DNA of 64,000 nt from a virus. The stretch lies in IMG/VR virus record IMGVR_UViG_3300028586_000750. One strand, given 5' to 3'. How positions within the stretch are numbered: position 1 is the first letter of the stretch; each line of letters begins with the position of its first letter. A program made the position numbers and the translations under genes. Below the pieces are notes generated by a model. The model was given only the letters and a program-made list of their open reading frames with translations. It did not search any database and was not told the origin of the DNA. Below, piece after piece: positions 35,102 through 56,009 of the stretch.

Positions 35102-36247
35102 TTACTTGGTGCTTGGAGTGTATGAGTAAATAGTTGCCCAGTCAATCAATACGTGACCTGCCGTTGTTTTGGCAGGAATTTTCCCATCGGCTGTTTCTAC
35201 TTGCATTACCCAATGCATTTTTGCGGTAGGAATAGACTCTGTTGTTGAACCAACTGCAACACCATCAATGTAGTAAGTTAATCTTTCAGGTGTCCAGTCA
35301 ATTGTGTATGTATGCCAATCTGTGTATTTAGCATTCGTTTCTACAACCATGCAGTTATTGGCTGGTGCTCCAACGCAATGGTTGTAACCGCGTACGTTAC
35401 CGTTTAGTTCGCCTTCTGGGAAGTCAATTTCTCCATCGTTCCAGTTGTTGTCATCTGACCACAGTAGGAAAGCTGTTTTATATCCTTCTAAGCTGTCTGT
35501 TTTCATACGGACACTGAAACGACCGTATTGTTGTCCGCCCCATTGTTCGTTAACAAGAGGAATAGGCGCTGCTGTTTTAGGTCGACCATCTGCACCTGTG
35601 TGTAGGTACATGTCTAATTTGCTATCGTTAACTGAAATAATACTTTGGTCATAGTCACCATTTTTGAAAGTGTCAGTGAAACCATTGTAGCTCATCCACC
35701 ATCTTGCGTAAGGACCAGGGAAACCACCTGTAGCTACAGGGGTGTTAAAATCCTCGCTGTGGGTCTGAGTCCAGCCAGGCAGGTTTCCCTTAGGCATTGA
35801 TGGGTCGGCGCTCACAGTGGACGCTGGTGGCGCTACAGTAAAGGTTTTGGCGTTATCGCCACCTACTGTCACCCATTGGCCGTTATATAGGACGCAAGCA
35901 AAATAGTTATAAGTTCCAGCAGGTAAAGTCTTCGTCTTTGTTAATGTAGTACCTGTAGTGCTTATAGTCACATTATAACTTTCAGCAAAATCAACATTTT
36001 TATTAGAAGCATCACGAGCACAAATGCTAGCTGATGCTACCTTTGTTGTAAAAGATGATTTGATTGTTGCTTTAGCTGTAACGCTGTTTCCGGTTACATT
36101 TGCGCTCAGGTTTGAGACAGTAAATTTTGGAGTTGCAGCCGAAGCTGGAGTTGCAATCGTCAAAGCTAAAGTAGAAGCAGCTAAAAGGGCTAACCCAGTT
36201 TTAGCTAGAACTTTACGTCTAGGTTTGGTTGTTTTCAGAAGGGACAT
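35102..36247 (-). CDS. secreted GH16 glycoside hydrolase (beta-glucanase-like)
   Basis: Signal peptide ending ASA; YGRFSVRMK, GEIDFPEG (E-x-D-x-x-E catalytic motif), WHTYTIDWTP. Confidence 0.88.
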   Translation of the reverse strand: MSLLKTTKPRRKVLAKTGLALLAASTLALTIATPASAATPKFTVSNLSANVTGNSVTAKATIKSSFTTKVASASICARDASNKNVDFAESYNVTISTTGTTLTKTKTLPAGTYNYFACVLYNGQWVTVGGDNAKTFTVAPPASTVSADPSMPKGNLPGWTQTHSEDFNTPVATGGFPGPYARWWMSYNGFTDTFKNGDYDQSIISVNDSKLDMYLHTGADGRPKTAAPIPLVNEQWGGQQYGRFSVRMKTDSLEGYKTAFLLWSDDNNWNDGEIDFPEGELNGNVRGYNHCVGAPANNCMVVETNAKYTDWHTYTIDWTPERLTYYIDGVAVGSTTESIPTAKMHWVMQVETADGKIPAKTTAGHVLIDWATIYSYTPSTK

Positions 36248-36426
36248 AGAACAAGTCTTTCATGATGGGAAGCTATTTTTAACTTCCCTACTATTATCTG
36301 ACGCTATGTACCCCAAATAGGGCTAAGACGGGTGAGGAAAGGATTAGTAATAGGTGATACGTAAGGTGATACAAAAGCGGGTGAGGGTTATGCCTTAAGC
36401 AAAACCCTCACCCGCTAACTTCTATA

Positions 36427-36654
36427 TTAAGCCTTTTCCGTATCAAACGAAATTAAGTGTTCCCATGAAATACGCAAACGCTTAGTTTTATTACTAGTGT
36501 CCGCATACTCAAAAATCATATAATGCGGGTTTTCTGAGTTAAGCAACTTAATAAAAGGTGGCACTTTAACTAGGCGAGCAGCCAAAGGCGTCAAAACAAT
36601 GTTTACCTTATAAATATTGTTCGTTCGGACAACATCTTCCATATATTCAGTCAT
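36427..36654 (-). CDS. hypothetical protein
   Basis: Coupled to tyrS stop (TAATG). Confidence 0.65.
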   Translation of the reverse strand: MTEYMEDVVRTNNIYKVNIVLTPLAARLVKVPPFIKLLNSENPHYMIFEYADTSNKTKRLRISWEHLISFDTEKA

Positions 36655-37874
36655 TATAGATTTCCTTTTTCAACAAGAACAAAACGGTTTTTACCTCTTT
36701 TAAGAAGAACCGTTCCTTCAAGAGTAACATCACCAACAGCTTTCAACCCATTAATAGAGATACCACCATCTTTAATCAAACGACGAGCATCAGACAAACT
36801 AGAAGCAAGTTCAGCGTCAACCAAAGTTTTTGTCAAAACGTTACCAGAAGCAACAACACCAATTTCATGACCCAAAGCAGCTACACCTTGTTCATCAAGC
36901 TCAGTGAAAGCTTTCTTGCCAAAAAGGACATTGGTTACATCGCGTACAGTGTTAGCTTTAACTTCACCATGAACAAGCTTAGTTACCTCAAAGGCCAAAG
37001 CTTTCTGGGCTGCACGTTTGAATGGAGCATCTGCAACTTCTTTTTCAAGTGCTTCAATATCTTCACGAGGAAGAAGAGTAAAGATTTTAAGAAAATCAAT
37101 TACACTATCATCTGCGGTGTTAAGCCAGAACTGGAAGAACTCAAAGACGCTAGTCTTGTTCTCATCAAGCCAAATAGCACCGTTCTCTGTTTTACCAAAC
37201 TTTTTACCTGTTGCTTTGTTAACAACAAGGGGTGTGGTAAAGACATGAGCTTCTTGCCCGTCCATACGGCGAATAAGACTTGCACCGGCTGTGCTGTTAC
37301 CCCATTGGTCGCTACCGCAAAGCTGTAATGTTACACCTTTCTCACGGAATAAGTGTAGGAAGTCGTATGCCTGAATTAGAGAGTAACTGAACTCTGCAAA
37401 ACTAATACCAGTTGTCTCTAGACGTGACTGGACAAAACCTCGGGAAATCATTTGCGCTGTAGGAACATTCTTACCTACAGTCATAAGGAACTCAATGAAA
37501 TTGATATCTTTGAACCAGTCATGGTTATCAACAATTTCAAAATCTTGTCCAGCAAAAATCTGCTTGTATTGCTCAACAATAGCTGCTTTGTTACTGTTAA
37601 TTACATCACGTGTTTTGAGGTTACGTTCATCTTTTTTACCATCAGGGTCACCAATAAGACCTGTGGCTCCACCGACTAGAAGAACAGCTTCATGGCCATG
37701 GTTAATGAAATGCTTAACGAGCATTGCTGAGGCAAGATTACCAATGGTCATGGAATCAGCACTAGGGTCCACACCCCAGTAGAACTTACGAGAACCTTCA
37801 TCTAGGCGCGTAATATCGTCTAAAGTAGACTGATTGGCTAATCCTCGCCAAATCAGTTCTTCTGAAAGTTTCAT
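36654..37874 (-). CDS. tyrS: tyrosyl-tRNA synthetase
   Basis: YWGVDPSADSMTIGN, GGATGLIGDP, QAYDF, GSDQWGN, KFGKT, C-terminal S4-like domain. Confidence 0.97.
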   Translation of the reverse strand: MKLSEELIWRGLANQSTLDDITRLDEGSRKFYWGVDPSADSMTIGNLASAMLVKHFINHGHEAVLLVGGATGLIGDPDGKKDERNLKTRDVINSNKAAIVEQYKQIFAGQDFEIVDNHDWFKDINFIEFLMTVGKNVPTAQMISRGFVQSRLETTGISFAEFSYSLIQAYDFLHLFREKGVTLQLCGSDQWGNSTAGASLIRRMDGQEAHVFTTPLVVNKATGKKFGKTENGAIWLDENKTSVFEFFQFWLNTADDSVIDFLKIFTLLPREDIEALEKEVADAPFKRAAQKALAFEVTKLVHGEVKANTVRDVTNVLFGKKAFTELDEQGVAALGHEIGVVASGNVLTKTLVDAELASSLSDARRLIKDGGISINGLKAVGDVTLEGTVLLKRGKNRFVLVEKGNL

Positions 37875-37972
37875 TATTCCTCAAATGTAGTAGTTGAACT
37901 TTCATCATAGCAGTTTTATGCTTAAAAGTAAAATATGGTTACAAGCAACTTTAGCTTGTAACCATATTTTAT

Positions 37973-39016
37973 TTACCACTTCACAGGAACATAATCTGGG
38001 TTTGTTTTCATACGGATAAGGTCTTTTAGCCCTTGTACCATAAGAGAATTAGTTGTGCTATGAATATAATCTCGTTCAATGACTAGTTGTGAAATGAACT
38101 GTGTTAAGTTCATAATAGGAATTTCATTGCCCCAAAGCGCGTTATCAATCACACCTTCACCTTTTGTAGTAGGCATAAAAACAACAACCGGTTTAATTAC
38201 CGATTTTGGAAAATGCTGTTGCATGGTTTTTGTAATTCTGGATAAATGGTCATCTGTCCAAGTGGCTTCACCAATAAGCGCACCAGTAGGTACATCCTCA
38301 CAATAAAGTTGATAACCTTTTGAGTAATAACGCACATCACCGGATTTGAAGTTTTTAACATCTACAATATAGACTGTGTTACCAGTCATAAGGATGCAGT
38401 CAAATTCTTTGTTATTTGCAGCGGGTTTAAAGTCAGATTGAAGCGGATGAGGCACTGACCATACAGTTTGGAAGCGTTTAATAAGGCCAGAGGCATCTAA
38501 AGCTTTTGCAAAGTTTTTCCTGTTTCGGACAGGTACCCAATATTTTTTATCATACTCTGTAGACTCACCTGGATTTGGTGTTCTCATGCCAGGAGTTCCT
38601 ATCATGGCGTGCACCTTAGGCAACATACGAGCATCCAAAGTGTTAGGTTCATACCCCGTGATACGACCGGGAGCGGTAGCTTGAGCTATAGGTTCGATTA
38701 CAATAGGTTTTGCAGCAGCAACATTGGCGTCAGATGAAGTTTTGGCTTTAGCAACAAAAGCTTTACGCTCAGGAACAGGGTCATGTTCACTCCAACCAGT
38801 GGCTGCAATAATTGCTTTCTTCTTCCTAAGAAGTCTAATAATAGGGAAAGTAACAAACGTCTTGTTAAACCCAATTACCATAATGCAAGCAGCAATGATG
38901 GACACAATAATGATTTTGTCATCATAGGCAGACCTAGTAAACAATGTTTCTGCGATAATTAAACGCCAAGCGAACATCCAACTCATTTTAATAATATGGA
39001 CAAATTTTATAATCAT
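37973..39016 (-). CDS. membrane-anchored NERD-like PD-(D/E)xK nuclease
   Basis: N-terminal TM; EFDCILMTGNTVYIVDVKNFK. Confidence 0.72.
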   Translation of the reverse strand: MIIKFVHIIKMSWMFAWRLIIAETLFTRSAYDDKIIIVSIIAACIMVIGFNKTFVTFPIIRLLRKKKAIIAATGWSEHDPVPERKAFVAKAKTSSDANVAAAKPIVIEPIAQATAPGRITGYEPNTLDARMLPKVHAMIGTPGMRTPNPGESTEYDKKYWVPVRNRKNFAKALDASGLIKRFQTVWSVPHPLQSDFKPAANNKEFDCILMTGNTVYIVDVKNFKSGDVRYYSKGYQLYCEDVPTGALIGEATWTDDHLSRITKTMQQHFPKSVIKPVVVFMPTTKGEGVIDNALWGNEIPIMNLTQFISQLVIERDYIHSTTNSLMVQGLKDLIRMKTNPDYVPVKW

Positions 39017-39408
39017 ATGCTTCCTGCAATTGTTAATGTAAGTGATTAAACTTATTTTTAGCTTATTTATCTACCTTACTATATATAGGAGAATTATGCT
39101 AGTTAAATTTGCTTGAAAAGGTTATTAAATGAATTTAACTATTTTTCCCGATACTATCTTTAGACTATTAGACAAAATATACTTATATACAGTACGTTAA
39201 TGCTAAACATATCATAATGATAGTTGTTTTAGCGTTGAATATATCATTTTATTAAATGGATCTACAATGGTTGTTTGCAATGTACAACAAAGCAAACTAT
39301 AAATTAATAAGCTTTGCAGGTTAAAGTAAGTAAAATGTTTCATTGACGCAAGATTGTACCAACTTAGACAGCAAAAAGGTTCAAGCAATAAAGTCTATGG
39401 AGGACAAA

Positions 39409-40695
39409 ATGAATAAGAAAACAACTTGCCTGACAGTGGTAACAAGTTTCTCATTAGGGCTAGCCCTTTTCGCAGCGCCTGTTACCGCTTTTGCTGATGT
39501 GTTGGAGGACGAAACATCAGCAAATATTTCCCAAACCAATACTGCACCTAGCGCCCCAACTAATGTAACTTTTTATGAACAGAACAGTTACCCAGTATGG
39601 CTAAAATGGACAGCCAGCGTTGATGATACTGATTATAATTTGAAGTATTACATTTATCGTGATGGAATGCCTTTATCCAAAGTTGATTCATTTGCAAATG
39701 CACAAGAAGGTGTAGATTTTAGCGCCGAACCAGGTATGACTTACACTTATACTGTAGCTAGCAAAGATAGCTCAGGTAACATATCACCAATGAGTAATTC
39801 CGTTACTGTAACTATTCCTAAAGCTGATACTTCACCAACTTCACCTGTTCTTACTTCCATTAATGTAAATAGTGATTTTATTCTTTTCAGTCTGGAAGCT
39901 ACAGACGATAACGATGTTCCTTCATATGACATTTATGTTAACGGTAGCTTATATGAACGTGGTTATTCCGGAACTGAATACACGTTGTATTTAACTCCTG
40001 GCGAAACTTTTGAAATTAGCGCTATCGCTAGAGACAGTAAAAACAATACTTCTTCTGCTTCAAATAGCTTATATGCAACTGGTGATTTTGGAACAATAGT
40101 AACACCAGCACCAGGGCCTCTGGCTTCATCACCCTTAACTGATTTCAGAACTGAATATGTTGGACATAACGTTACATACTTCTCTTGGTCATCAGGAAAC
40201 ATACCTGCATATGACCTTGGTGCTTACGATATTTACCGAAATGGGGTAAAAATTGACACTGTTTGGGGTAATGGTTCAGATAGAAGTTCCTATACAGACA
40301 AAACAGCAGAAGCTAATACAACATACACATACAATGTTGTTGCTCATGATTGGAGAAATACGAATTATGACTTATCTGAGTCTTATGCTATTTCTACACC
40401 TGCGGACCCTAACGGATTAGACACTATTGCGCCTTCTAATATTTTGTTAAACTACTATTACTACAGCAGCTACATGGGTTTGCAGATGACATGGACGCAC
40501 GCAGTTGATAACTTCGGTTCTGTTGAGTACCAGATTTACCGTGATGGGGTACTTATCCACACCCAAATAGACACAACATATTTCAATGACCAAGATGTTA
40601 TGCCTGGTTCAACTTACAACTACACTGTAGTGACTGTTGATAGCTCTGGTAATACTGGTACTCCTTTGGAAATACCAAACGTACAAATTTATTAA
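39409..40695 (+). CDS. secreted fibronectin type III repeat protein
   Basis: Signal peptide (AFA); about 4 FN3 units PSAPTNV..W..S.D...YYIYRDG...YTYTV. Confidence 0.88.
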   Translation: MNKKTTCLTVVTSFSLGLALFAAPVTAFADVLEDETSANISQTNTAPSAPTNVTFYEQNSYPVWLKWTASVDDTDYNLKYYIYRDGMPLSKVDSFANAQEGVDFSAEPGMTYTYTVASKDSSGNISPMSNSVTVTIPKADTSPTSPVLTSINVNSDFILFSLEATDDNDVPSYDIYVNGSLYERGYSGTEYTLYLTPGETFEISAIARDSKNNTSSASNSLYATGDFGTIVTPAPGPLASSPLTDFRTEYVGHNVTYFSWSSGNIPAYDLGAYDIYRNGVKIDTVWGNGSDRSSYTDKTAEANTTYTYNVVAHDWRNTNYDLSESYAISTPADPNGLDTIAPSNILLNYYYYSSYMGLQMTWTHAVDNFGSVEYQIYRDGVLIHTQIDTTYFNDQDVMPGSTYNYTVVTVDSSGNTGTPLEIPNVQIY

Positions 40696-40707
40696 TAGGC
40701 CATAGTT

Positions 40708-40739
40708 AAAGGCCCCACCAGTTATCTGGTGGGGCCTTT
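40708..40739. repeat. palindrome family member
   Basis: aaaggccccaccag ttat ctggtggggccttt. Confidence 0.85.
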
Positions 40740-40775
40740 TCCGATATATAAAACATACAAACATATAAGGTATCT

Positions 40776-41210
40776 ATGAAAACTGCATTTTGTACTAAAC
40801 GCGCCATAATGGTACTTGCTTTAGCTTTAAGCGGAACGGCACTATTAAGTGGGTGCGGAGGCGGGTTTACCGCTTTGCCTGACGAAGAACGGTACCAATA
40901 TATCAATGAAGCTAAAGATATAGCAGAACCAGAAAGTGCTGGAAAAATAACTACTGGGGGTTACGATACGGGAGACGGAATTTTCTCACCTTCATCATAC
41001 CGCGTAACAATTGAAGGCAAAGATACTTATAATATTTTGAAAGAAAGATTAAAGAAAGCACCTGACAATGGATGTCAAGAATCCGCTGACATGACATATG
41101 TATCTTGCGAAATTAAACAAGCTGATAGTAAAATTACTAGAGAGACAGTAAATGCTACTCGAACCAGATTTGAAATTGTAGATACAATGAGTGGACGTGA
41201 TGCAGAATAG
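40776..41210 (+). CDS. lipoprotein
   Basis: Lipobox LSGC. Confidence 0.78.
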   Translation: MKTAFCTKRAIMVLALALSGTALLSGCGGGFTALPDEERYQYINEAKDIAEPESAGKITTGGYDTGDGIFSPSSYRVTIEGKDTYNILKERLKKAPDNGCQESADMTYVSCEIKQADSKITRETVNATRTRFEIVDTMSGRDAE

Positions 41211-41286
41211 CAGTTAAGCACCCATTGACAATACACCTATATCAATGGTAATGTAATAAGACATAATATTAAGGATATATGTTTAT

Positions 41287-41550
41287 ATGATCAAACCCGC
41301 CCGTGTCTATGTTGAATGTTCTGTGGATAACACTCGTAGCAAGATGACTGAGGATGACCTTCATGCTGTTGCTATTAATTTCGCTTCACAAGTCCATGGA
41401 GTTATCACAGACAGACTCATCACCGATGATGACTTGTGGTGGCGAGTAGTCATTGATGCTTACGCGGAAGACAAGCGTCTTGACCGTATTGCTAACCAAA
41501 CCATCCAACAGTATCCTTATGTTGACATTGGATGGTTTGATAGGGACTAA
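41287..41550 (+). CDS. hypothetical protein
   Basis: TTGACA-N18-TAATGT promoter at 41225-41254. Confidence 0.7.
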   Translation: MIKPARVYVECSVDNTRSKMTEDDLHAVAINFASQVHGVITDRLITDDDLWWRVVIDAYAEDKRLDRIANQTIQQYPYVDIGWFDRD

Positions 41551-41807
41551 ACTTCGTCTTCAACATATCCAATGTGTTGAGAGTTGAATTGGAACATATC
41601 ATGTGGGTCTGCATACCATTTGATTTCTAGAACTTCAAGACGTGCAGTTTTACCAGAAGACATGCTGATAAGTAGGTTATCACCTACTTGAATTGGTTTA
41701 TTGGCATGCCCAACACCGCTAATCTGCCATTTTTCACGGTCAACTTCAAGCTGACGTAAAGCCCAACCCCATGCTTTTTTACTAACTGTAAAATCATATG
41801 TTTGCAT
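41547..41807 (-). CDS. hypothetical protein
   Basis: AAGGA RBS. Confidence 0.7.
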   Translation of the reverse strand: MQTYDFTVSKKAWGWALRQLEVDREKWQISGVGHANKPIQVGDNLLISMSSGKTARLEVLEIKWYADPHDMFQFNSQHIGYVEDEV

Positions 41808-42096
41808 TCTTGATCCTTTTGTTTATTAAACAAATGTTATCATGATTATTGCTTATGGTCAAGCTGTATGCTCCGGCTAAGCTTGTTTTTGTTTGTTTTG
41901 ATAAGCGTATAGCTTATACATCGCTTTGATAAGCTATACGCTTATCAAAAACCACAATATGTCACATTTTAGCAACATATAATATGTTACTAGAAAAGCT
42001 TGGACTAATTTACATGCCAAGCTTTTCTTTTATATTCCTGTTGCACAACCGCTTTTGGAGTGCTAGACTAAATTTAATCATTCACCGCTACACCAT

Positions 42097-42378: not shown

Positions 42379-42487
42379 ATCTTAAACATTTTGGCCCCTA
42401 CCTTGTCTTAGGTAGGGGCCAAAATGTTTTTCCAAGCACAAAAAGCTGTGGCCGCTTCTATCTTTAGAAGCGGCCACAGCTTTTTCA

Positions 42488-46070: not shown

Positions 46071-46236
46071 CTAGGTTAGTTCTAAATTAAAAAGAAGCGG
46101 TGTCTTACAAAATATTGTAAGACACCGCTTCTTTTTAAACGTTTAAACTAGTGATCTTAATAAAGATCCATCTGATTAAATAGAAATGGTGTTGTTCGCT
46201 CTCATAAAAACGAACAACACCATAACTTTTTAACTA

Positions 46237-47979
46237 TTAAATATTACCAATCTTTTTGGTATTCGTTGGAACATTAATAAGCTTTGCAATATCCGCTGGG
46301 ATAGGTGTAGCAACACTTACGTTATTTGTTTCATCAGCAGTCATACTGCTAAGAGGAAGAACTGTTTTAGTTATAGCGTTCTTCCATGTTGGATTAATAT
46401 TTTTGTTTAATGCTTCTGGTGTATCATAGCGAATGAAATCACCTGTTGAGTCAGGTGTTACACCCCATGCAACAACAGTGTTTTGACCAGTCTGAGCACG
46501 AACATTGAATAAGTTGCCTGTTAACGTAATGTTTTTAGGAGCGGCATTCAAAGCGTAGAACTGGAACCCTTTAGTGGCACCAAAAGTGTTGTTAGCAATG
46601 GTGATATCTTTTGTTACCCATGAAACAGTAGGGTCTGGTAACGGTTGACGTGGGTCATGACCAGGAACTTTAGTGTCTGAGGCTAAACGACTATCTTGTG
46701 CTACACGAACAGCGAAGCGAGAGTTATTTTCAAACTCGTTATTGTAAACTTTTACGTCACCAGTGCCCACAATGGTTAAACCATCTGTTTGGTTACTGGA
46801 ACTGTTGTTGGCAACAATAACTTTTTGAGACAATTCAAGAGAAATACCTGTTGAACTGTTGTTATTAGTAATGCTGTTGGTAATAGACGCGTTGTAAACG
46901 GATTCGTCTAACCAAATACCTGCACCCCAGTTGTTACTTGAATAAAGGTTGTCAATTTTAACATCACGTGAACGTGTGATTTTGAAACCGCCAGCCACTG
47001 GTGCTTGTTTGAATTGCTGGAAATTGTTTTGTTCAATACGTGAGTTCGTGAAGGATGAACCGTATGCTGCGTTAGAACCTAAACCAAGCATTCCGCTTCT
47101 TAGAATAGTTACATGGTCAACTTTAGCATTGTTGTTACTCATGCTAAGACCAAGGTATGCGTTGTCTTCTATTTGAAGGTTTTGTGCTGTAGCGTTAATG
47201 TTAACCATACGGACAGCAGCTTGGTCTTCACTTGTTGAAGCGTAACGTCTTACACCAAAACCTTGAAGTGTTGTTCCTGCTGAGTTAACCATGATACCGG
47301 CACTCAAGTTGCTTATACGAACTTCTTTACCTACGGGACTTGTTCCAATAATAACTTTTTTAGCCACAGTATCAACGTAGAAAGTATTACTTTTAACTTC
47401 TGCGGCAGTGGCTACTTGTGTCATCTGCACACCATTAATGAACACTTGGTCACGTTTAGACGCTAAAGGATGGTCTTTATGTACGTAACGTGGGTTATCT
47501 GCGATACCATCAATTACTGATGATGGGAAGAAGGACCAAGGGGTTGACCATGTTGTACCATTTTGTGTCCATGTGGTTACTTTTTGCGAACCATCAAACC
47601 ATACAGTTTCTTTAGGATAAGCCTGAATGGTAAGAGGTTTGCTGTAAGGGACATTAATGCTTTCGTTGTACTCACCTGCACGTACAACAACCGTTTGACC
47701 TGCTTTAGCTTTTGTAACAGCAGCTTGAACTGTTTTTAATGGGCTTGCTAGCGTCCCTGCGGCTGTATCAGAGCCTGTTGGAGCTACAACAAGTGCAGTA
47801 GAAGGGACAGCATAGTTTGTCGTTCCTAGCTTAGCTGAGCCTTGCGTTGATGATGGTCCAGTTACAGGTAGCGTTGCAGCGTTTGCACCGGTTACTGTAA
47901 TTAGCGGAGAAACAAGAAGAGCGATAGTTATAGCACCTACCGCTCGTTTCTTTTTACTAAAAATAGATAGTTGTTTCAT
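46237..47979 (-). CDS. secreted right-handed parallel beta-helix protein (pectin-lyase-like fold)
   Basis: Signal peptide (ANA); VAPTGSD..AGT...PLKT, VVVRAGEY, N-rich I.NN repeats. Confidence 0.83.
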   Translation of the reverse strand: MKQLSIFSKKKRAVGAITIALLVSPLITVTGANAATLPVTGPSSTQGSAKLGTTNYAVPSTALVVAPTGSDTAAGTLASPLKTVQAAVTKAKAGQTVVVRAGEYNESINVPYSKPLTIQAYPKETVWFDGSQKVTTWTQNGTTWSTPWSFFPSSVIDGIADNPRYVHKDHPLASKRDQVFINGVQMTQVATAAEVKSNTFYVDTVAKKVIIGTSPVGKEVRISNLSAGIMVNSAGTTLQGFGVRRYASTSEDQAAVRMVNINATAQNLQIEDNAYLGLSMSNNNAKVDHVTILRSGMLGLGSNAAYGSSFTNSRIEQNNFQQFKQAPVAGGFKITRSRDVKIDNLYSSNNWGAGIWLDESVYNASITNSITNNNSSTGISLELSQKVIVANNSSSNQTDGLTIVGTGDVKVYNNEFENNSRFAVRVAQDSRLASDTKVPGHDPRQPLPDPTVSWVTKDITIANNTFGATKGFQFYALNAAPKNITLTGNLFNVRAQTGQNTVVAWGVTPDSTGDFIRYDTPEALNKNINPTWKNAITKTVLPLSSMTADETNNVSVATPIPADIAKLINVPTNTKKIGNI

Positions 47980-48165
47980 TGTTGAATTACCTTTCCTCAT
48001 GGTATTTTTTTGAATACAAAATGAACCCTTAATATGGGTGCACTCTATCCCCGTTTTAAATATCTGCATTTTGTTTAAGACCGCAACATAATAGGAAAAG
48101 TCTGGTATCAAAATGGTTAACACTTTAATACCAGACTTTTCCTAGAAAACTTTAGATAAGAATAG

Positions 48166-48414: not shown

Positions 48415-48544
48415 TATTTTCCTTTGTTTATGCGGGATATTACTCAATCTTACCATTTTTTGTCACATAAATCAACTTATGGTTTTGTTTGTTTCTACCT
48501 GTGTCTGGTCTATTTTTGTTTTTCTGTTTGTTTGAATTAGACAT

Positions 48545-48580
48545 AAAAAATACCCCCCATTATAAAAATGGGGGGTATTT
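48545..48580 (-). terminator. intrinsic terminator closing the ncRNA transcript
   Basis: aaatacccccatt..aatggggggtattt hairpin followed by T-run on the minus strand. Confidence 0.75.
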
Positions 48581-48929
48581 CGTAGCGAGTGTCAGCTTTA
48601 GCTCATGACTTCTGCCGCTGTCTTCACTACTACAGATTTTCACTGTTTGCCTCTTGCCACCTTCGGGTCTGAGCCAGTCCCTAATGGAGGATAGTATCCG
48701 CCGACACGTCCTTTGGTCTGTTTGCCTTGGTTATACAAACACAATACTTATTTTTATCCGTTATTCCTGGTGTCCCTCCCTTGCCACCATTACAGCAGCC
48801 GAGTTTGACTCAAAGTATTTTACAGTTTTTACCTATGCAGTTAACAACTCACTGTCAGTTTCTACGGTTTCACGATAACCGCCAACGGAACATCTTTCAG
48901 GCGCGACCCGTCAATTTGTTCACTCACAG
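48581..48929 (-). ncRNA. large ornate structured RNA, ROOL-like
   Basis: No ORF on this strand; 5'/3' closing helix GTGAGT/ACTCGC, long-range GTGTCGGC/GCTGACAC and GGCTCA/TGAGCT helices, many hairpins; directly 3' of tRNA-Lys. Family assignment is from recalled similarity only. Confidence 0.55.
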
Positions 48930-49002
48930 TGCCCTCTCAGGGACTCGAACCCTGGACCCAACGATTAAGAGTCGCTTGCTCTACCAACTGAGCTAAAAAG
49001 GC
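48930..49002 (-). tRNA. tRNA-Lys(CUU)
   Basis: Full cloverleaf, anticodon loop CT-CTT-AA, GGTTCGAGTCC. Confidence 0.95.
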
Positions 49003-49220
49003 GTAAATAGTGGAGAAAATGGGAACTTCCCTACATTTTCTGCACTAGACTTGGTTTTCCACTCGGGGCTATGTCAAGCCCCTGCCATCGGATTTGCTGT
49101 CTGTTACGATAAGCTCCCGGCCCGTTCCGAAGTGTACCTTTAGTATCGGTTGAATAAGTTCAAATCAGATTCAAACAAAACTAAAGTTGTTTATGTAAAT
49201 CTCTTTTGTGTTATAAGTTA

Positions 49221-49249
49221 AGTTTAACAGACCTTCATAGCAATGTCAA
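49221..49249 (-). promoter_or_regulatory. SigA-like promoter for the tRNA-Lys/ncRNA transcript
   Basis: TTGACA-N17-TAAACT. Confidence 0.75.
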
Positions 49250-49380
49250 ACTATTTTGTTAAATTTAAGTCCAGTTAGAGGCCAGTGTCATCATAATGAT
49301 GTAAAGAGCTTTCTAAGTACCAGGACTTAGTAGAGGCTACCTTTCCCCTATGGGGCACCTGCATTACTGGAACAGTCAAT

Positions 49381-49500
49381 AAAAGTAAGATGAATTAAAG
49401 ATTCGAACTTTCCAGCAGAGTGTACACTCCGTCCAAGCATCCACGGAATCGAACCGTGTTCCTAGCTACTGTGGCCTACGTTGTATCTTCACTTACTTTT
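49381..49500 (-). ncRNA. structured RNA with two T-loop hairpins
   Basis: Closing stem AAAAGTAAG.TGAA/TTCA.CTTACTTTT enclosing CACGG-TTCGATT-CCGTG and AAAG-TTCGAAT-CTTT. Confidence 0.5.
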
Positions 49501-49502
49501 CG

Positions 49503-49575
49503 CTGGGGTAACTGGACTCGAACCAGTAACCTTAAAGTTAACAGCTTTCTGCTCTGCCAATTGAGCTATACCCCA
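49503..49575 (-). tRNA. tRNA-Asn(GUU)
   Basis: Cloverleaf TGGGGTA/TACCCCA, loop CT-GTT-AA, G73. Confidence 0.95.
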
Positions 49576-49783
49576 ATGAAGGATAATCTAATGACATCTT
49601 AGGGCTGGTCCACGTCCTTATCGCTCGCCTGCCGGAATTACTGACTTTGCAGCATTGACCTTCGCCGTATTTGGCTCTGTCATTACTTCTCTCACCTAGG
49701 AAAGAAGGGTGTTGGCTCTATTGTTTTATAGTATTTCATTTAGGAAGACTTACCTATTTGTGTGCTTCCTTGCTTATGTATCT

Positions 49784-49813
49784 ACAATAGCACGCTTTCG
49801 TCAACCATGTCAA
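49784..49813 (-). promoter_or_regulatory. SigA-like promoter upstream of the ncRNA island
   Basis: TTGACA-N18-TATTGT. Confidence 0.65.
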
Positions 49814-49848
49814 CTCAAAAGCAAACTATTTTGAAAAAAGTTTTGAGC

Positions 49849-50202
49849 TTAATCTAGACGGTATGCAACAAGGGTTGCACGTGATGGATTGAACTGGGTA
49901 ACAAAACGCCACCCTGCGCAATCGCGTAGCCCAATACCAATAAGCGTATAATGCTCAGCATCCAACGAGTTAGAATCAGTTGTAAGCATTAGCTGAGGGC
50001 TACCCTTTTCAAACTCATCAAAAGGATGCTCAACAAAGACATAATTAATATTAGCCTCTACAGTGTCAATTTCCCAAACACGTAGGTTATTCTTTTTAGT
50101 AAGAAGCTTTACAGACTTAACCTTAATATCACCTTCATGCATTACTGCGGTTTTGCGATACACAGGTGTCACTTGTAGCCTTTTAACAAGGGGGTTGCGC
50201 AT
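49849..50202 (-). CDS. hypothetical protein
   Basis: GAGAG RBS. Confidence 0.7.
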   Translation of the reverse strand: MRNPLVKRLQVTPVYRKTAVMHEGDIKVKSVKLLTKKNNLRVWEIDTVEANINYVFVEHPFDEFEKGSPQLMLTTDSNSLDAEHYTLIGIGLRDCAGWRFVTQFNPSRATLVAYRLD

Positions 50203-50316
50203 TTTTATCTCTCAATTCTATTGAATAATATATGATTTAAGACTAACATAGTTGATGATATAGTTCAAGCCCCAACAAATATTATGTTGGGGCTTGAACT
50301 ATAGTTTTGTGCTGAT

Positions 50317-51318
50317 TTAACGTTTGAAGAAACCTGCGACAGTTTTTGCTAGACGAGCGGCAGGAGGCGTGTAACCTTCTGGTAGCTTATCTTCATTAAC
50401 AATTCTTGGTCTTCCGTTAGAAGGTGCTGGACTTGTGCTTTGTTCAGTTTTTACTTCTGATTTAGGTTCAGCGGTTTTAACGGTTTTCTTTCTACTCTTC
50501 TTGCTCTCGCCATAAGCTTCAAAAGTCCCTTCTTTATATCCATGAGCTTTATCAATTGCAGAACCGAAAGCTTTTAATCTCATGCTTTCTGCAAGCATTT
50601 CCTCTTGGTACATTCTTTGGCCTGGTCCACCTAACAAATATGAACGGTACAAAGATTGTCCTCGTTCATTGAAATTAAAACCATTATTTTTGCGTAGGGT
50701 TGTAATATGGGCATCTGCTTCTTGTGCAGTTAAAGCTCTCTTATGAGACAAGTCAACTACTTTTTTGAATTCTTCTTTTACAATTGTAGCTTTTCTTTGT
50801 ACTTCTGCTGAATATAAAGCTCTTTCTCCAACAAAACCATTATCAAAAGTAACATGTGTAGCTGTAACTTCTTTTTCTGCTGTAATAACAGGTTGACGTG
50901 CTTTTAACACACGAGGAGCATTTACTCTTTCTTCTTCTTTGCGCCAGTGCTCTTCAATTTGTCTGACCATCGCGCGGTCAGGGTAACCTAAACGTTCTTG
51001 ACGTTTGTCATAAGCAGCTTGACTTTTACGCTGTCTTGCTTGCACATTTTCAGGTAAATTATATACTCGATCTTCTTCTTCACGATGTTTAGCATAAGCA
51101 TCTTTCATTTCTTGTGGAAGAGCTTCAAAGTCTTCAACATCTTTTAATGTGATATCTTTTTTATTTGTCTTTCGGGCTGCATCATCATTTTTCCAGTCTT
51201 GGGTTAACGTAACTGTTATTGCCTCAACGTGTTTTCCACCGTTACGACATTCTTTTTTAGCAGGACAAGTAACCCATTGACCTTCTTTTGCACCAGATTT
51301 GGCAACATGCACGCTCAT
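50317..51318 (-). CDS. hypothetical protein with N-terminal Cys/His module
   Basis: HVAK...WVTCPAKKECRNGGKH; AAGGAG RBS. Confidence 0.78.
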   Translation of the reverse strand: MSVHVAKSGAKEGQWVTCPAKKECRNGGKHVEAITVTLTQDWKNDDAARKTNKKDITLKDVEDFEALPQEMKDAYAKHREEEDRVYNLPENVQARQRKSQAAYDKRQERLGYPDRAMVRQIEEHWRKEEERVNAPRVLKARQPVITAEKEVTATHVTFDNGFVGERALYSAEVQRKATIVKEEFKKVVDLSHKRALTAQEADAHITTLRKNNGFNFNERGQSLYRSYLLGGPGQRMYQEEMLAESMRLKAFGSAIDKAHGYKEGTFEAYGESKKSRKKTVKTAEPKSEVKTEQSTSPAPSNGRPRIVNEDKLPEGYTPPAARLAKTVAGFFKR

Positions 51319-51412
51319 ATTTTCTCCTTTAAAGCTGTATTACTTTATATATAACGGCGAAAGCCTTCCCTATAAATAGGGAAGGCTTTTCTTATGAGAG
51401 TTTTTTGTTGCG

Positions 51413-51895
51413 TTAGCGCTTCGGGGTGGCCTCATTGATGACCTTGTGCTGGTCGGTCGTGTAAATGACACGCTTGACACCGGCCTCTTCCAGAAGCTTC
51501 GTGCAGTTCTCGCAGGGGCGCGAGAAACGCGGTCGGCCCTGCTTGTCCACGCGAGCAACGTAGATGGTAGCGCCACGAGGGTCAGGAACGCGGCTCAGCG
51601 CGTCAGCCTCCGCGTGAGTGCTGATGTTGGGGTCGTACTCAGTGCTCTCGCTGACGGTCGTGTGACGGCTGCGGTAGCGGTTAATGCCCACCGAAAGGAC
51701 GCGGCCACCACGAACAACAACTGCACCGTGCTGACGGTTAACGTCGGAAGTCTCAGCAACCTTAGTGGCAAGGTCAAGGAAGGAACGCTGGCTGCGCGAA
51801 AGAGGGGTGTGGGGAAGCTCGAACGTACCAAGACGGTTCGCGTTTCCCTTGAACAGTCGGTTCCTCGGCGGGGCGCACATTTCCTGAAAAGACAT
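51413..51895 (-). CDS. cytidine/deoxycytidylate deaminase-like Zn enzyme
   Basis: HGAVVV, HAEADAL, SRPCENC; start uncertain. Confidence 0.88.
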   Translation of the reverse strand: MSFQEMCAPPRNRLFKGNANRLGTFELPHTPLSRSQRSFLDLATKVAETSDVNRQHGAVVVRGGRVLSVGINRYRSRHTTVSESTEYDPNISTHAEADALSRVPDPRGATIYVARVDKQGRPRFSRPCENCTKLLEEAGVKRVIYTTDQHKVINEATPKR

Positions 51896-52053
51896 TTCCG
51901 TGTAACTTTCTCTCATAAATTTAACGGTTGATACTCTTAGTGTAGCAAGCTGTACTGAGGAATGCAACTTCGCAAGCAAACTTTTGGAAAATATTTGAAA
52001 AAAAGTTTTGGCCTCTCAATCGGATATGACTGAGAGGCCAAAACTAAATGTGG

Positions 52054-52509
52054 TTATTTGATTTTTACAACACCAAGAGACATGTATTCGTTTGAGTGTC
52101 TAATGATTGCTTCCATATCTTCTGCATGGTAGATAAGACCGTTATTACCTAACCAAACAGGTGAATGCGTTTTAGTATGACCGACCACGTTGAACAGTTC
52201 TTTATCCACAACGATAACGCTTCCTTTAGTGAAGGAATAGTTCCATTTGGTGAAAGCTGAATAAAATGCGAAATCTGCAATCGATAGGTTCTTGTGTTTT
52301 TCACCTGCGATTGTAACAAAGTTAAATGTGCCACGTTTTAGGCTTTGGGAAAGGACATATCCGTAGTTAACGTTTTTGCCCGCAATGATTTTGACTTTGG
52401 AACGGTTGCGAATAACAGTATTAAGGTCATCAATTTGAGGAACTAACCCTGAATGGCACCCTGACATATCATTTAGAGTATAGGCATTAACTTTCATGGC
52501 AAAACTCAC
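52054..52509 (-). CDS. hypothetical protein
   Basis: Coupled to upstream gene. Confidence 0.65.
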   Translation of the reverse strand: MSFAMKVNAYTLNDMSGCHSGLVPQIDDLNTVIRNRSKVKIIAGKNVNYGYVLSQSLKRGTFNFVTIAGEKHKNLSIADFAFYSAFTKWNYSFTKGSVIVVDKELFNVVGHTKTHSPVWLGNNGLIYHAEDMEAIIRHSNEYMSLGVVKIK

Positions 52510-52913
52510 TTGTTGTGAATATCAAGCTTGGGAACAAGCTTTAGAAGGCCCTCTGGGATAAGGCTATTAGTCCACTCACCGTCAACAGGAGAAACAATAT
52601 AGGTATCCCCGGTCTGGTTCCATACAGCATAATCCGCTGTGTCAGCAAGAACGCGCACATGTGGACGATTAGGGTTGAAGTTGCTGAAAGTGGTTACAAC
52701 AAGCTTGCTACCAACAACACTAAGGTTCTCAGGGTTCACATGTGGGTAAGTTCCAATAATATCAGCTACATAGAAGTTAGTATCATGGTCACCCTTTAGC
52801 TTCTGGTGCCCTTCTTTGAATGATAGACAAAGAGCATCTAGCGTATCAGGTTCGTCATCAAGACGCACAACAGTAATACGGGGAAGTTCAGTTTCAATGT
52901 GGATGTAAGACAT
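52506..52913 (-). CDS. hypothetical protein
   Basis: AGGA RBS. Confidence 0.7.
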   Translation of the reverse strand: MSYIHIETELPRITVVRLDDEPDTLDALCLSFKEGHQKLKGDHDTNFYVADIIGTYPHVNPENLSVVGSKLVVTTFSNFNPNRPHVRVLADTADYAVWNQTGDTYIVSPVDGEWTNSLIPEGLLKLVPKLDIHNK

Positions 52914-52928
52914 TATTTTCCTAAATAG

Positions 52929-53162
52929 TTATTCGTCAACAATACCGAGTAAATCAGCTAGGGTTTCACGATTATCCGTGTCATCCCAACCCCAACAACG
53001 GCCTGAGTTAAGTAATGCAGCATTTTTTGGGTCTGAAAAAATTGTTTTAACTTTCTCAATATCTTCGTCTTGTAGAACAACAAAGAATTCTTGCTTGATG
53101 TCAAGCAGATCATCATCAGTTAACGTTTTGCGTCCTGGTCGGTTACGACGGCTTTCAGCCAT
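52929..53162 (-). CDS. hypothetical protein
   Basis: GGAG RBS. Confidence 0.7.
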   Translation of the reverse strand: MAESRRNRPGRKTLTDDDLLDIKQEFFVVLQDEDIEKVKTIFSDPKNAALLNSGRCWGWDDTDNRETLADLLGIVDE

Positions 53163-53493
53163 TTATTACTCCAATAATTAAGTTTGATGTGCAACCAGCT
53201 TACCAGTATTGAAAACATTTGTCAAGAACTGGTTAAACAAGTAATGCGTCAAATCATTGAGACTTGACGCATTACTTGTAATACCTTTAGGAAAGAATAG
53301 TTCCCAAAGTTTGTTTCTATCATAAGTAAGGATTCTAACTTTTCGGCTTCTCTGCTTGCGCTCCACCTATGTGAAAAGTTACAACTGACGTAGCACTATT
53401 CTTACTACTACTCGACATTTCCATGAGCATGCCAAGCTTCCAACATAATTCCGTTTCAAGCAGTGTATTAAGCTGCTATCCATTCGTCATGGG

Positions 53494-53576
53494 TACTCCA
53501 GGTGGGACTCGAACCCACACGTCCTTTCGGACAAAGCATTTTGAGTGCTTCGCGTCTGCCATTCCGCCACTAGAGC
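53494..53576 (-). tRNA. tRNA-Leu(CAA)
   Basis: Class II cloverleaf, AAGCA-CTCAAAA-TGCTT, variable arm GTCC-GAAA-GGAC. Confidence 0.95.
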
Positions 53577-53726
53577 ATATTTGGTAACTTGCGTTACCGT
53601 GTTGCTCTCTATACATATACTATAACACGTTTTTGGAAGGTATGCAACCTATTTACAATTTTTCTTCTAAAAAGACAAGTGGAGGGCAACTTAAATTAAG
53701 TTGCCCTCCACTTTAGTAGTCACTAA

Positions 53727-55265
53727 TTATTTCACGAATGAAACACCAGTTGTTGTTTTGTCATATTGAGGCCAGGTTGTACCATTTGATGGACCATAGA
53801 AGGAAGATTTTAATGTTCCGTTCTTTGTGTCAATTTCAAGTGTACGTACTGGGTTTGTGGTGTTTGAATGGAATGTTCCTAAGTAAGAAACAATTTTGTT
53901 ACCGTTCACACCAGTGTCTTCGCGGTATCCTGCTTCACCGACGTGACCAGAAACAACAATTTTGATGTTTGCGTACTGCTTAATCAAGTTGTCGTAAACG
54001 TATTGTGCAGAATTTGAACCATAGCTTGCTGATTGGTCAATTGTTGAGCCGCCATTCAAGTAAGAATGAGTTGATACAACAACATTGTAGTCAGGGTGTG
54101 AAGCTACAACTGTTTTAGCCCAGTCAACAACTTCTGTTCTTGGCCATAGTTCAAGATTTAGCATAAGCCATTTTTGGCCTGCTGCGTCAAAGGTTTGGTA
54201 AGCGTTATCAACTTTACCTGCTTCAAAGGTTGTAATACCTGGGTAACGGTTTACGTTGAAGTAAGTGTTGAATGTTGTTGTGTTGCGAACCAAAGTTCTT
54301 GTGTTCTTTGGGTCTGCTGCTCCACCACCGACACCTACTGCTGCTGTGTCATGGTTACCAATTGTTAATGCGTTAGGAATTTTGTTGTCATCTAGCACTC
54401 TCATAGCTTTTGATGCAACTTCGTATTGGTCATGAGTTGGGGTGTCCCAGTTCACAACGTCACCTGTGTGTTCTACGAAACGTAGGTCAAGGTTTTCTTT
54501 GTTGTTAACTAACCATTGTGTTCTGTTAATAAATCTGCTGTCTTTTCCAACTTCCTGTTGTGTGTCAGGGATGACTGCGATTGAGAACTTACCGTCAGCG
54601 TCTTGTGGGCTTAATGGCGCTGGGGTTGGTGTAACTGGTGGTGTAACCACTGGTGGGGTCACAGGAGGCGTTACAGGGGGTGTAACAGGTACTGTAGCTG
54701 CTGGCATTGCCCAGAAGATTGTTCCTTCTGCTGTCCAACCTGCTGCTTTAAGAGCATCTTTATCAGCTTGTGTTGTTGCGTAACGGTGCTTGCTTCCAAG
54801 AATGAAACGGTCTACAGGAATACCGCAATCAATCTTTTTAGGTGAAGCATAGAAGTTGATACCTTGGTCAACGTAATCATATTTTGTTTTGGCACTTTCG
54901 TATTCGTTTGAACCTGACCATTTTGGAATGTAAACAAAGTCACCTTTTTTAAACATGCGGTAAACAGGAACTAGTCCTTCTTTTTCTTTACCTGCTGCTT
55001 TGAACGACACACCTTTATCTACAGTAAAACCATTGTTAACTTTAGCTTTAGCAATCTCATTTGCATTAGATGTAAGCAACGATGCATTTGATGTTGGGTT
55101 AACTGATTGGTAGATATCTGTTGTCATTCCAGCACATACGGTGCTGGACGCGGGTGTGGTTGCTGCGTTTGCTGTTACCGCACCCATTGGTAAGAATGCC
55201 AATGTTAAAGCTACTGCGCCAAACTTTTTCCAATTTTTGGCAGAGTTCTTGTTTTGTTTTTTCAT
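53727..55265 (-). CDS. secreted calcineurin-like metallophosphoesterase with N-terminal DUF5648-like domain and PT linker
   Basis: Signal peptide (ANA); IPDTQ, HTGDVV, IGNHD, THSY, VSGH motifs; VPVYRM...GW.AEG..FW repeats. Confidence 0.87.
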   Translation of the reverse strand: MKKQNKNSAKNWKKFGAVALTLAFLPMGAVTANAATTPASSTVCAGMTTDIYQSVNPTSNASLLTSNANEIAKAKVNNGFTVDKGVSFKAAGKEKEGLVPVYRMFKKGDFVYIPKWSGSNEYESAKTKYDYVDQGINFYASPKKIDCGIPVDRFILGSKHRYATTQADKDALKAAGWTAEGTIFWAMPAATVPVTPPVTPPVTPPVVTPPVTPTPAPLSPQDADGKFSIAVIPDTQQEVGKDSRFINRTQWLVNNKENLDLRFVEHTGDVVNWDTPTHDQYEVASKAMRVLDDNKIPNALTIGNHDTAAVGVGGGAADPKNTRTLVRNTTTFNTYFNVNRYPGITTFEAGKVDNAYQTFDAAGQKWLMLNLELWPRTEVVDWAKTVVASHPDYNVVVSTHSYLNGGSTIDQSASYGSNSAQYVYDNLIKQYANIKIVVSGHVGEAGYREDTGVNGNKIVSYLGTFHSNTTNPVRTLEIDTKNGTLKSSFYGPSNGTTWPQYDKTTTGVSFVK

Positions 55266-55902: not shown

Positions 55903-55928
55903 TAGTTGCTCCTTATTTAGGTAGTTTC

Positions 55929-55957: not shown

Positions 55958-56009
55958 TGTGAAAAGACAAAGCGGGGTGCCTCATATTTAGAGGCACCCC
56001 GCTAGTAAG

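Follow-up and report, generated by a model that had tools for sequence, protein, structure and literature searches.

Five genes for predicted Sec-exported proteins, including a GH81 glucanase-type enzyme, on a 0.79-Mb and probably phage-like replicon

A 64-kb stretch of the IMG/VR virus record IMGVR_UViG_3300028586_000750, hereafter called the window, represents about 8% of a 0.79-Mb replicon and holds, between 35.1 and 55.3 kb, five intact open reading frames (ORFs) for large, predicted secreted proteins. A preliminary description of this DNA had reported such a group of five signal-peptide proteins within 20 kb among tiny genes; all five ORFs were found where it had placed them, and the genes around them are small, with a median window ORF length of 125 amino acids (aa). 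The five genes are as follows:

35102..36247, minus strand: predicted secreted GH16 enzyme, 381 aa (Pfam PF00722, 7.8e-18)
39343..40695, plus strand: predicted secreted FN3 / Ig-like repeat protein, about 430 aa from its probable start (Pfam fn3 and RGI_lyase beta-sheet domains)
43134..46070, plus strand: predicted secreted GH81 endo-beta-1,3-glucanase-type enzyme, 978 aa (Pfam PF17652 and TQ; PDB alignments)
46237..48000, minus strand: predicted secreted right-handed beta-helix enzyme, about 587 aa from M42 (Pfam Beta_helix 2.7e-20, NosD, DUF1565)
53727..55265, minus strand: predicted secreted DUF5648 protein with a metallophosphoesterase domain (Pfam DUF5648 6.2e-18, Metallophos 1.3e-7)

All five proteins carry a Sec-type signal peptide, in which a basic n-region precedes a hydrophobic core and an AxA site, recognised by script and by reading of the sequences, and four of the five share the cleavage context AxA-AT (cleavage at the hyphen). 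Their cellular homologues carry signal peptides too, the closest GH81 group being alike even after the cleavage site. These signal peptides lend good support to the prediction that all five are exported through Sec, and a C-terminal LPXTG anchor was found in none of them. The catalytic motifs quoted earlier, EIDFPE, NDHYFHYGY and QESTSE, are all present at their quoted positions, indicating that the catalytic residues are not absent.

The GH81 protein begins with a signal peptide (residues 1–37), followed by the catalytic region (about 60–690) and Pro/Thr linkers (693–723 and 845–861), and ends in two T-Q ester (VaFE-repeat) domains. The GH81 C-terminal domain scored 165.4 bits with PF17652 (cut-off 25.6; E-value 2.9e-48), and the TQ domain was found at 2.4e-12. 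Residues 71–605 align with the Clostridium thermocellum enzyme (PDB 6fop, 8.4e-50) and, at about 1e-38, with Bacillus halodurans BH0236; the motifs NDHYFHYGY (439–447) and QESTSE (513–518) fall on the NDHxFHYGY and NNQESxSE blocks of these two enzymes. The catalytic acids would be the Asp in NDHxFHYGY and both Glu residues in QESxSE. The nearest sequence clusters are three metagenome-only ones at 97, 94 and 84% identity, and the next-best matches reach at most 53%. The first named relative is from Lapillicoccus, followed by Nocardioides, Dermatophilaceae, Nostocoides, Frigoribacterium and Frondihabitans, and most of these actinobacterial relatives have a CBM6 module where the window protein has the T-Q domains.

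Orthologues of the GH81 protein were found in three metagenome loci (L001–L003) on contigs of 885, 94 and 180 kb, which add 69 kb to the window, giving 133 kb scanned in total. They are 71–93% identical at the amino acid level over the full length (72–92% in the best tblastn segment), and the signal peptide is kept in all four orthologues. Between the window and L001 the catalytic part shows 97.5% protein identity at only 82.8% DNA identity, and the ratio of nonsynonymous to synonymous substitution rates (dN/dS) is 0.009–0.056 for the pairs with estimable dS, which is saturated at values of at least 1.4. GH81 is thus under very strong purifying selection. Comparison with actinobacterial homologues was made in a maximum-likelihood tree of 54 sequences (quick method; support by SH-aLRT, the Shimodaira–Hasegawa-like approximate likelihood-ratio test), in which the clade of the elements (window, L001–L003 and a further sequence, P0003) is nested in actinobacterial GH81, beside the Lapillicoccus group, with starred support.

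The guanine-plus-cytosine (G+C) content of the four loci varies widely (window 40.5%, L001 48.9%, L002 46.4%, L003 53.6%), and the GH81 gene follows its locus each time. Within the window the G+C content is about 40% throughout (range 0.36–0.45), with 0.39–0.43 in the five secreted-protein genes. Because GH81 tracks each element's own G+C content, contamination is ruled out and long residence is demonstrated. Host contamination or a chimeric contig, which had been raised as a possible objection, was rejected on the even G+C content, on nearest cellular homologues that are only about 50% identical, and on the orthologues in three related elements. Set against the 71–93% identity of GH81, the spread in G+C content also suggests strong compositional drift within one element family. 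Within 10 kb on either side of GH81, no synteny was found in L001–L003; the exceptions were a DUF5648 protein beside GH81 in L001 and, in L002, fragments of the tRNA region.

The phage comparison set comprised 50,697 phage records, searched by tblastn and megablast. The GH81 catalytic domain found no match in these records by tblastn, and the single record that did match covered the T-Q region (746–950) only. In the limited literature collection that was searched, no report of GH81 in phages was found. The earlier statement that GH81 is rarely reported in phages is therefore borne out by the records.

The GH16 protein consists of a signal peptide (residues 1–37, ASA-AT), a beta-rich N-terminal domain (about 38–140) and the GH16 domain (about 145–381), which scored 65 bits with PF00722 against a cut-off of 22. 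Its motif EIDFPE (273–278) is the six-residue 'bulge' form of E-x-D-x-(x)-E. The domain is divergent: PDB matches to lichenases and laminarinases are weak (E-values of 1e-6 to 1e-2), with the HMMER alignment of the motif to lichenases shifted by two columns, and the NCBIfam matches BglS, ExoK and EglC all fall far below their cut-offs. The neighbours in the Atlas, with scores of 0.91–0.96, are all actinobacterial GH16 clusters, which serves as a lead only. Another parallel comes from a phage: in Curtobacterium phage Kithara, the minor tail protein gp31 has a C-terminal domain that aligns with residues 137–373 of the window protein (27% identity, E-value 1e-19), and the block W-x-DGEIDFPE is identical in both. 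The gp31 gene sits between the genes for the head-to-tail adaptor and the tape measure. As the tail enzyme of a phage of Microbacteriaceae must act on a host surface polymer, this kinship would point to such targets for the window GH16.

In the phosphoesterase, a signal peptide (1–34, ANA-AT) precedes DUF5648 (51–186), a Pro/Thr linker (188–217) and the phosphoesterase domain (about 225–512), the last with 32.7 bits to Metallophos (PF00149; cut-off 21.5). The family is large, with 6106 relatives at E≤1e-3 and 280 at E≤1e-30, many of which share the DUF5648–phosphoesterase architecture; named relatives include Microbacterium, Labedella and metagenome-assembled genomes (MAGs) of Clostridiales and Archangiaceae. 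In a 36-member alignment D234, Q236, G268, D269, G303, H305, H400 and H441 are invariant. Of the dimetal motifs, GD, GNHD, H400 and H441 do not vary; D-T-Q stands in the place of the first motif and GHxG in that of the last. Since D-x-Q and GHxG replace D-x-H and GHxH and are themselves invariant, the dimetal site appears to be a conserved variant. The structural model (predicted local distance difference test, pLDDT, 87.7) gave generic dimetal fold matches, namely Lmo2642, purple acid phosphatases, GpdQ and 5'-nucleotidase, and a PDB sequence search returned one spurious linker match only. DUF5648 is described as a three-bladed propeller that recognises glycans, both in O-antigen-directed toxins of Bacteroidales and in GH70 enzymes; in an endolysin of an enterococcal prophage it is described as a putative domain for wall binding. 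In relatives of the window proteins it is fused to a beta-helix (P0244) and, as noted for L001, occurs in another protein beside GH81, indicating that the module has been shuffled among exported enzymes.

The gene of the FN3-repeat protein most likely starts at M19 or M23 (39397–39409). Its FN3 region matches that of the exoglucanase CbhB (NCBIfam, 4.5e-26), a PHROG match to 'major tail protein' spans the repeat domains only, and no catalytic domain was recognised by Pfam or NCBIfam. For the beta-helix protein, comparison with its 585-aa orthologue places the most likely start at M42, near 48000 instead of 48123; the signal peptide then ends ANA-AT. A homologue with 79% identity lies on the 885-kb relative contig, followed at about 50% by Frondihabitans, Subtercola, Frigoribacterium and Clavibacter (Microbacteriaceae), and the 50,697 phage records contain no match. 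The AlphaFold 2 model (pLDDT 90.9) has its best fold match in the GH120 beta-xylosidase XylC (3vst; E-value 6e-18, query-normalised TM-score TMq 0.61), with later matches to GH141, GH136, a Klebsiella capsule lyase and phage depolymerases. Judged from this model, the protein is predicted to be glycan-active and lies outside the assigned families.

The sequence relationships of the GH81 tree, the beta-helix protein, the phosphoesterase and the GH16 neighbours indicate that the enzymes derive from Actinobacteria. The actinobacterial link of the preliminary description is upheld by the nesting of GH81, the beta-helix homologues at about 50% and the Microbacterium and Labedella relatives of the phosphoesterase. 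The linkers of GH81 and the phosphoesterase, which had been called near-identical, are indeed alike as peptides, although their DNA differs at synonymous sites, which implies that they are not a recent copy; a recent duplication of the Pro/Thr linkers was accordingly rejected.

The stretch that carries the five genes is rich in terminator-like sites, 27 of which lie in 19.9 kb (34500–54400) compared with 15.6 ± 4.2 in shuffled sequences. Two neighbouring features were located here:

46091..46223, minus strand: two long GC-rich hairpins, with 20 and 17 base pairs in their stems, where the GH81 and beta-helix genes converge
40776..41210, plus strand: predicted lipoprotein with lipobox LLSGC (script), directly 3' of the FN3 gene

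The hairpins are probably bidirectional terminators, and the strong hairpins between genes make the five genes look like separate transcription units. This layout bears on the idea that the five are lysis or virion enzymes, that is, endolysin-like wall hydrolases with signal peptides or tail depolymerases with uncleaved N-termini. The genes are scattered and separately terminated rather than placed in a structural or lysis cassette, none of the five proteins has a tail-attachment N-terminal domain or a peptidoglycan hydrolase domain recognisable by Pfam or NCBIfam, and all five have canonical, cleavable AxA sites. These features count for more than the points on the other side, namely that Sec-exported endolysins exist in phages of Gram-positive bacteria, that beta-helix folds are common in tailspikes, and that a GH16-like domain occurs in the Curtobacterium phage tail protein. 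No evidence for any of the five as a virion or lysis protein emerged from the domain, signal-peptide and gene-layout analyses, and we consider this explanation highly improbable; the argument that signal peptides speak against a tailspike role is strengthened by the canonical AxA sites and by the lack of a wall anchor and a tail-attachment domain in the five proteins.

Apart from the five large proteins, at least five small ORFs with lipobox signal peptides encode predicted lipoproteins (17544–18242, 24829–25185, 27253–27666, 33351–33539 and 40776–41210). That at 27253–27666 matches the phage family phrog_3641, and that at 40776–41210 has no family match in Pfam, NCBIfam or PHROGs. Together with the five secreted proteins, about one tenth of the window genes would be directed to the envelope.

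The nature of the carrier was assessed from the remaining genes of the window. Matches to PHROGs were obtained for 17 of 85 window ORFs, several of them to phage-only families of unknown function. The ORF at 2900–3289 matches 12 phage records, 11 of which are Streptomyces or Gordonia phages, the ORF at 61241–61636 matches two Microbacterium phages only, and an ORF for an HNH endonuclease of phage type matches phrog_10822 (6e-47). The endonuclease belongs to an array that overlaps the 3' part of the region with the five genes:

48929..63057, minus strand: tRNA array of 10–11 genes with small ORFs and an HNH endonuclease (ARAGORN, Rfam)

Ten tRNAs were called by ARAGORN and 11 by Rfam, all on the minus strand and including two tRNA-Leu(TAA); two tRNAs have irregular anticodon loops (58488–58560 and 62986–63057), and two calls were made by Rfam only (57131–57199 and 57378–57460). 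The tRNAs read TTA (twice), TTG, GGA, GCA and other codons, and these codons are common in the window. Codons TTA, TTG, GGA and GCA are rare in high-GC hosts, so the tRNA set might fit a low-GC element in an actinobacterium. The genetic code is the standard one, with TAA as the stop of 82 of 102 window ORFs. An alternative code as the cause of the small ORFs was rejected, as reading any stop as sense lifts the ORF cover only from 0.83 to 0.87–0.89.

Beside these genes, nucleotide genes typical of large phages were observed at 14269–14907 (oligoribonuclease, above the NCBIfam cut-off), 29148–29927 (HD-domain hydrolase; weak HD_4, SpoT/RelA type), 19490–20044 (5'-deoxynucleotidase, NT5C) and 51413–51979 (dCMP deaminase). 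In the related loci, the L001 flanks (17872–21045) contain an R2K ATP-grasp gene, an extracytoplasmic function (ECF) sigma factor with an RskA-type anti-sigma factor (a SigK/RskA pair) and NucS, and positions 65–6270 of L003 hold a TelA/TerD/StiP/PRTase cluster of the tellurite-resistance type. NucS and SigK/RskA have an actinobacterial flavour.

A different picture of the carrier arises from a further gene, which marks the kinship of the replicon:

36654..37874, minus strand: tyrosyl-tRNA synthetase, TyrRS (TIGR00234, 316 bits)

Identical TyrRS copies are present on contigs of 791 and 788 kb, and relatives at 79% and 72% identity on contigs of 689 and 696 kb. The named loci among the best 80 of the 512 TyrRS relatives, which were compared as genome loci, are almost all Saccharibacteria, one having a proteobacterial label. 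In an unrooted tree the TyrRS of the window belongs to an internally diverse clade of 10, apart from 88 other rows; without an outgroup this clade could be sister to those rows or nested among them. The members of the clade occur only on unbinned contigs, some of 0.69–0.79 Mb, and mark a family of such large replicons. From these data it could be proposed that the carrier is an ultra-small, Saccharibacteria-related cell living as an episymbiont on Actinobacteria, in which the five proteins would be an ordinary secretome, encoded by genes acquired from the host lineage, and would serve to attack or graze the surface of the host. The graded TyrRS relatives on contigs of 0.69–0.92 Mb, the many exported proteins and lipoproteins, a replicon size that matches Saccharibacteria genomes, and the presence of GH81 in 13 of 401 sampled Saccharimonadia genomes all agree with this proposal. 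The GH81 genes themselves do not: 12 Saccharimonadia sequences fall elsewhere in the tree, and the window GH81 is only about 35% identical to them.

The same proposal was examined with one complete 796-kb Saccharibacteria genome as a control (twelve 64-kb windows, and a 60-kb stretch for Pfam counts at E≤1e-5). Of all window ORFs of at least 50 aa, about 100 in number, TyrRS (61%) and an RNase T-type exonuclease (33%) are the only ones with homologues in this genome, and hardly any were found for the 69 kb of related loci. The Pfam counts were 16 of 50 ORFs for the window and 43 of 67 for the control stretch. The latter holds IF-2, FtsA/Z, four tRNA synthetases, ribosomal proteins, RF1 and SecA, whereas translation is represented in the window by TyrRS alone, which is also the sole housekeeping gene in the 133 kb. 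The architecture of the window lies outside all twelve control windows, with an ORF cover of 0.83 compared with 0.89–0.96, a median ORF of 125 aa compared with 150–308 aa, and 44 strand switches compared with 15–34. In addition, its 10–11 tRNAs lie within 14 kb, compared with 39 over 796 kb in the control, and are unlike the matching isoacceptors. The window thus has neither the core genes nor the architecture of a Saccharibacteria chromosome. No GTDB species representative has a TyrRS closer than 65%, no synteny of the TyrRS neighbourhood was found across the 80 loci, and small ORFs match actinophage genes. We therefore regard it as quite unlikely that the five proteins are the secretome of such a cell. 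Overall, the carrier is probably a phage-like element, either a virus or another extrachromosomal element; a cell of any kind is unlikely, and some weight is left for other possibilities.

As to what the enzymes act on, the preliminary description had held beta-1,3-glucan to be foreign to Actinobacteria and had proposed a cross-kingdom target, namely eukaryotic walls or biofilm matrix. In its full form this reading takes the five genes as auxiliary metabolic genes of a giant phage: the enzymes exported from the infected cell would break down organic phosphate and the beta-glucans of fungi, algae or plants, and the yield would sustain a lengthy, expensive infection. As the PDB matches indicate, beta-1,3-glucanases are the type enzymes of the GH81 family, the CBM6 modules of the actinobacterial homologues are typical of nutrient-acquiring glucanases, and a 0.79-Mb genome needs much phosphate. 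Frondihabitans, Frigoribacterium, Subtercola and Clavibacter are plant- or lichen-associated, which likewise favours such a role. The element GH81, however, has lost the CBM6 of its relatives and has T-Q ester stalk domains instead, the GH16 domain has a relative in a phage tail enzyme, DUF5648 suggests that glycans of bacterial surfaces are recognised, and no sugar or phosphate uptake gene was found near the five genes in Pfam and NCBIfam scans of the window. Prophage carbohydrate-active enzymes (CAZymes) with signal peptides are documented for 3261 of 64,678 cases (5%; PMC13507307), which adds to the case for auxiliary genes. On the other side, Cellulomonas makes a curdlan-type glycocalyx and storage glucan (PMC3544764, citing Kenyon 2005), so that Actinobacteria can themselves make beta-1,3-glucan and the premise that this polymer is foreign to them was too strong. 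The cross-kingdom target is not supported, in view of the EIDFPE motif in a Curtobacterium phage tail protein, the glycan-binding DUF5648 and the Cellulomonas glucan; polymers of a bacterial surface or matrix are no less likely a target than a eukaryotic wall. We consider the use of the five proteins as nutritional auxiliary genes unlikely as the principal explanation.

The explanation that we favour, and to which we would assign about an even chance as a whole, is that the five are captured, Sec-exported enzymes that act on bacterial surface or extracellular polymers. The kinship of GH16 with a tail enzyme, the DUF5648 module and a beta-helix fold as in capsule depolymerases together make bacterial surface or matrix polymers the most likely targets. 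In this scheme, the five genes would have been captured from Actinobacteria (Micrococcales-type donors), would have drifted to the low G+C content of the replicon and would have been kept by selection, on a carrier whose likeliest identity, as we infer it, is that of a giant phage-like element in an actinobacterial host and not of a cell. The general Sec pathway of the carrying cell would export five functional proteins, enzymes or binding proteins, none of them anchored to the wall. Outside the cell, GH81 would cut beta-1,3-glucan and the GH16 and beta-helix enzymes would cut other glycans, while DUF5648 would steer the phosphoesterase to a glycan-rich surface where phosphate esters are cleaved. 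The likeliest substrates would be the curdlan-type glycocalyx, wall glycopolymers and biofilm matrix of the host or its neighbours, and the enzyme set would remodel or dissolve the envelope surroundings of the carrying cell. The release of sugar and phosphate could feed the cell as a side benefit, so nutrient scavenging may coexist with this function.

Several observations weigh against this explanation. The substrate of characterised GH81 enzymes, beta-1,3-glucan, is found mainly in eukaryotes, and we know of no glucan synthase for the host. The best match of the phosphoesterase is the Clostridiales MAG (63%), not an actinobacterium, and the signal peptides were called by a rule-based script (basic n-region, hydrophobic h-region, AxA) and not by SignalP. 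With respect to the carrier, the G+C content of 40% is far from that of Actinobacteria, and TyrRS is closest to that of Saccharibacteria, with 56–65% identity across the best 80 of 512 relatives, which would fit a cell. Capsid, portal, terminase and tail genes were found neither in the window nor in L001–L003 (133 kb, with the window at about 8% of its replicon). Scans of IMG/VR with GH81, TyrRS and an exact 40-mer gave no relative, nor did megablast against the phage records. The replicon (0.79 Mb) and its relative (0.885 Mb) both exceed the largest known phage genome, put at 735 kb in a 2026 review (PMC13282480), and no described phage or element of such size and features was found in the limited literature collection. 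The earlier assignment of the carrier to a phage is accordingly retained in part: phage-only PHROGs, actinophage matches, the HNH endonuclease and the tRNA array make a phage plausible, and the missing part is a hallmark gene in the 133 kb. A more specific version of the favoured explanation, in which a phage of record size (0.79 Mb; its relatives reach 0.885 Mb) infects Micrococcales-type Actinobacteria and exports host-captured glycanases and a glycan-targeted phosphoesterase through Sec to strip or rebuild the host glycocalyx or matrix before lysis, is possible, but we hold it to be doubtful.

If the carrier is viral, the exported enzyme set would be unusually large for a phage, including the GH81 and beta-helix families, and it would show that a giant phage can influence the surroundings of its host cell ahead of lysis, as well as the interior. 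If the carrier is a cell, the finding would be an ordinary one and the interest would move to the odd gene content of that cell. In addition, the analysis provides a substrate lead for two poorly known modules, the GH16 variant shared with Curtobacterium phage tails and the DUF5648-guided phosphoesterase with its 6106 relatives.

Other features of the window were also recorded. The 12-mer GGGAAAAGACAT has six exact copies on the plus strand (1543, 7843, 13713, 22625, 27141 and 33052) and none on the minus strand, regardless of gene direction; near-copies lie at 5904, 9067, 11097, 51884 and 57842, and the word thins out past 33 kb. A family of intergenic GC-rich hairpins (1077, 6641, 13740, 16193, 23417 and 29089) shares the loop-proximal sequence ACCAGAATTAACTGGT, flanked by complementary GGCC-type arms, and may consist of terminators with a conserved, possibly protein-binding apex. 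The ORFs at 34075–35016 (313 aa) and 50317–51318 (333 aa), for which no family match was obtained in Pfam, PHROGs or NCBIfam, have a similar N-terminal Cys-x(6-7)-Cys-Arg-x-(His/Gly)-Gly motif as seen by eye. The 136-aa ORF at 3361–3771 weakly resembles rifampin ADP-ribosyltransferase (Arr) models and phrog_17296, with scores far short of the cut-offs, and the large ORFs at 9221–12189 gave nothing in PDB sequence searches or the Atlas.

Host-derived CAZymes on mobile or viral genomes are already known; what is unusual here is the number of exported proteins, and the GH81 and beta-helix families that are unmatched in phage records. The polysaccharide-degrading enzymes of phages and prophages, such as the GH32 levanases of Bacillus phages (PMC4595243) and the CAZymes of soil prophages (PMC13507307), are host-derived, some have signal peptides, and they are thought to act extracellularly, as proposed for the window proteins. 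The window differs from them in carrying five exported proteins within 20 kb, two of which, GH81 and the beta-helix protein, belong to the unmatched families, and in a carrier whose viral nature is only plausible. The closest phage counterpart, the minor tail protein gp31 of phages Kithara and Shrew (PQ868964.1), has in common with the window GH16 a GH16-like domain over about 240 residues and the catalytic block. It is a virion tail component encoded among structural genes, lacks a signal peptide and is unrecognised by Pfam, whereas the window GH16 is predicted to be a free secreted form with a different N-terminal domain.

Among GH81 enzymes (C. thermocellum Lam81A, 6fop; BH0236, 5t49 and 5upi; Rhizomucor miehei, 4k35; and the CBM6-bearing actinobacterial homologues), the three-domain catalytic core, both motif blocks and secretion are shared with the window protein, which is 46–53% identical to the actinobacterial enzymes. 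Unlike them, it is encoded on a 40%-GC giant replicon, and two T-Q ester domains behind Pro/Thr linkers take the place of the C-terminal CBM6. In other DUF5648 proteins, namely the toxins BSAP-2 and BSAP-3, GH70 enzymes and an enterococcal GH25 prophage endolysin, PF18885 is an add-on to a catalytic or killing domain, as in the window. Here, in contrast, it is N-terminal to a dimetal phosphoesterase, and in relatives of the element it is also fused to a beta-helix. Finally, Saccharibacteria (TM7) resemble the carrier in replicon size and G+C content, in TyrRS kinship and in the presence of GH81 in a few of the sampled genomes, yet they have almost no other gene in common with the window; their GH81 is of different descent, and gene density, gene size and tRNA layout differ.

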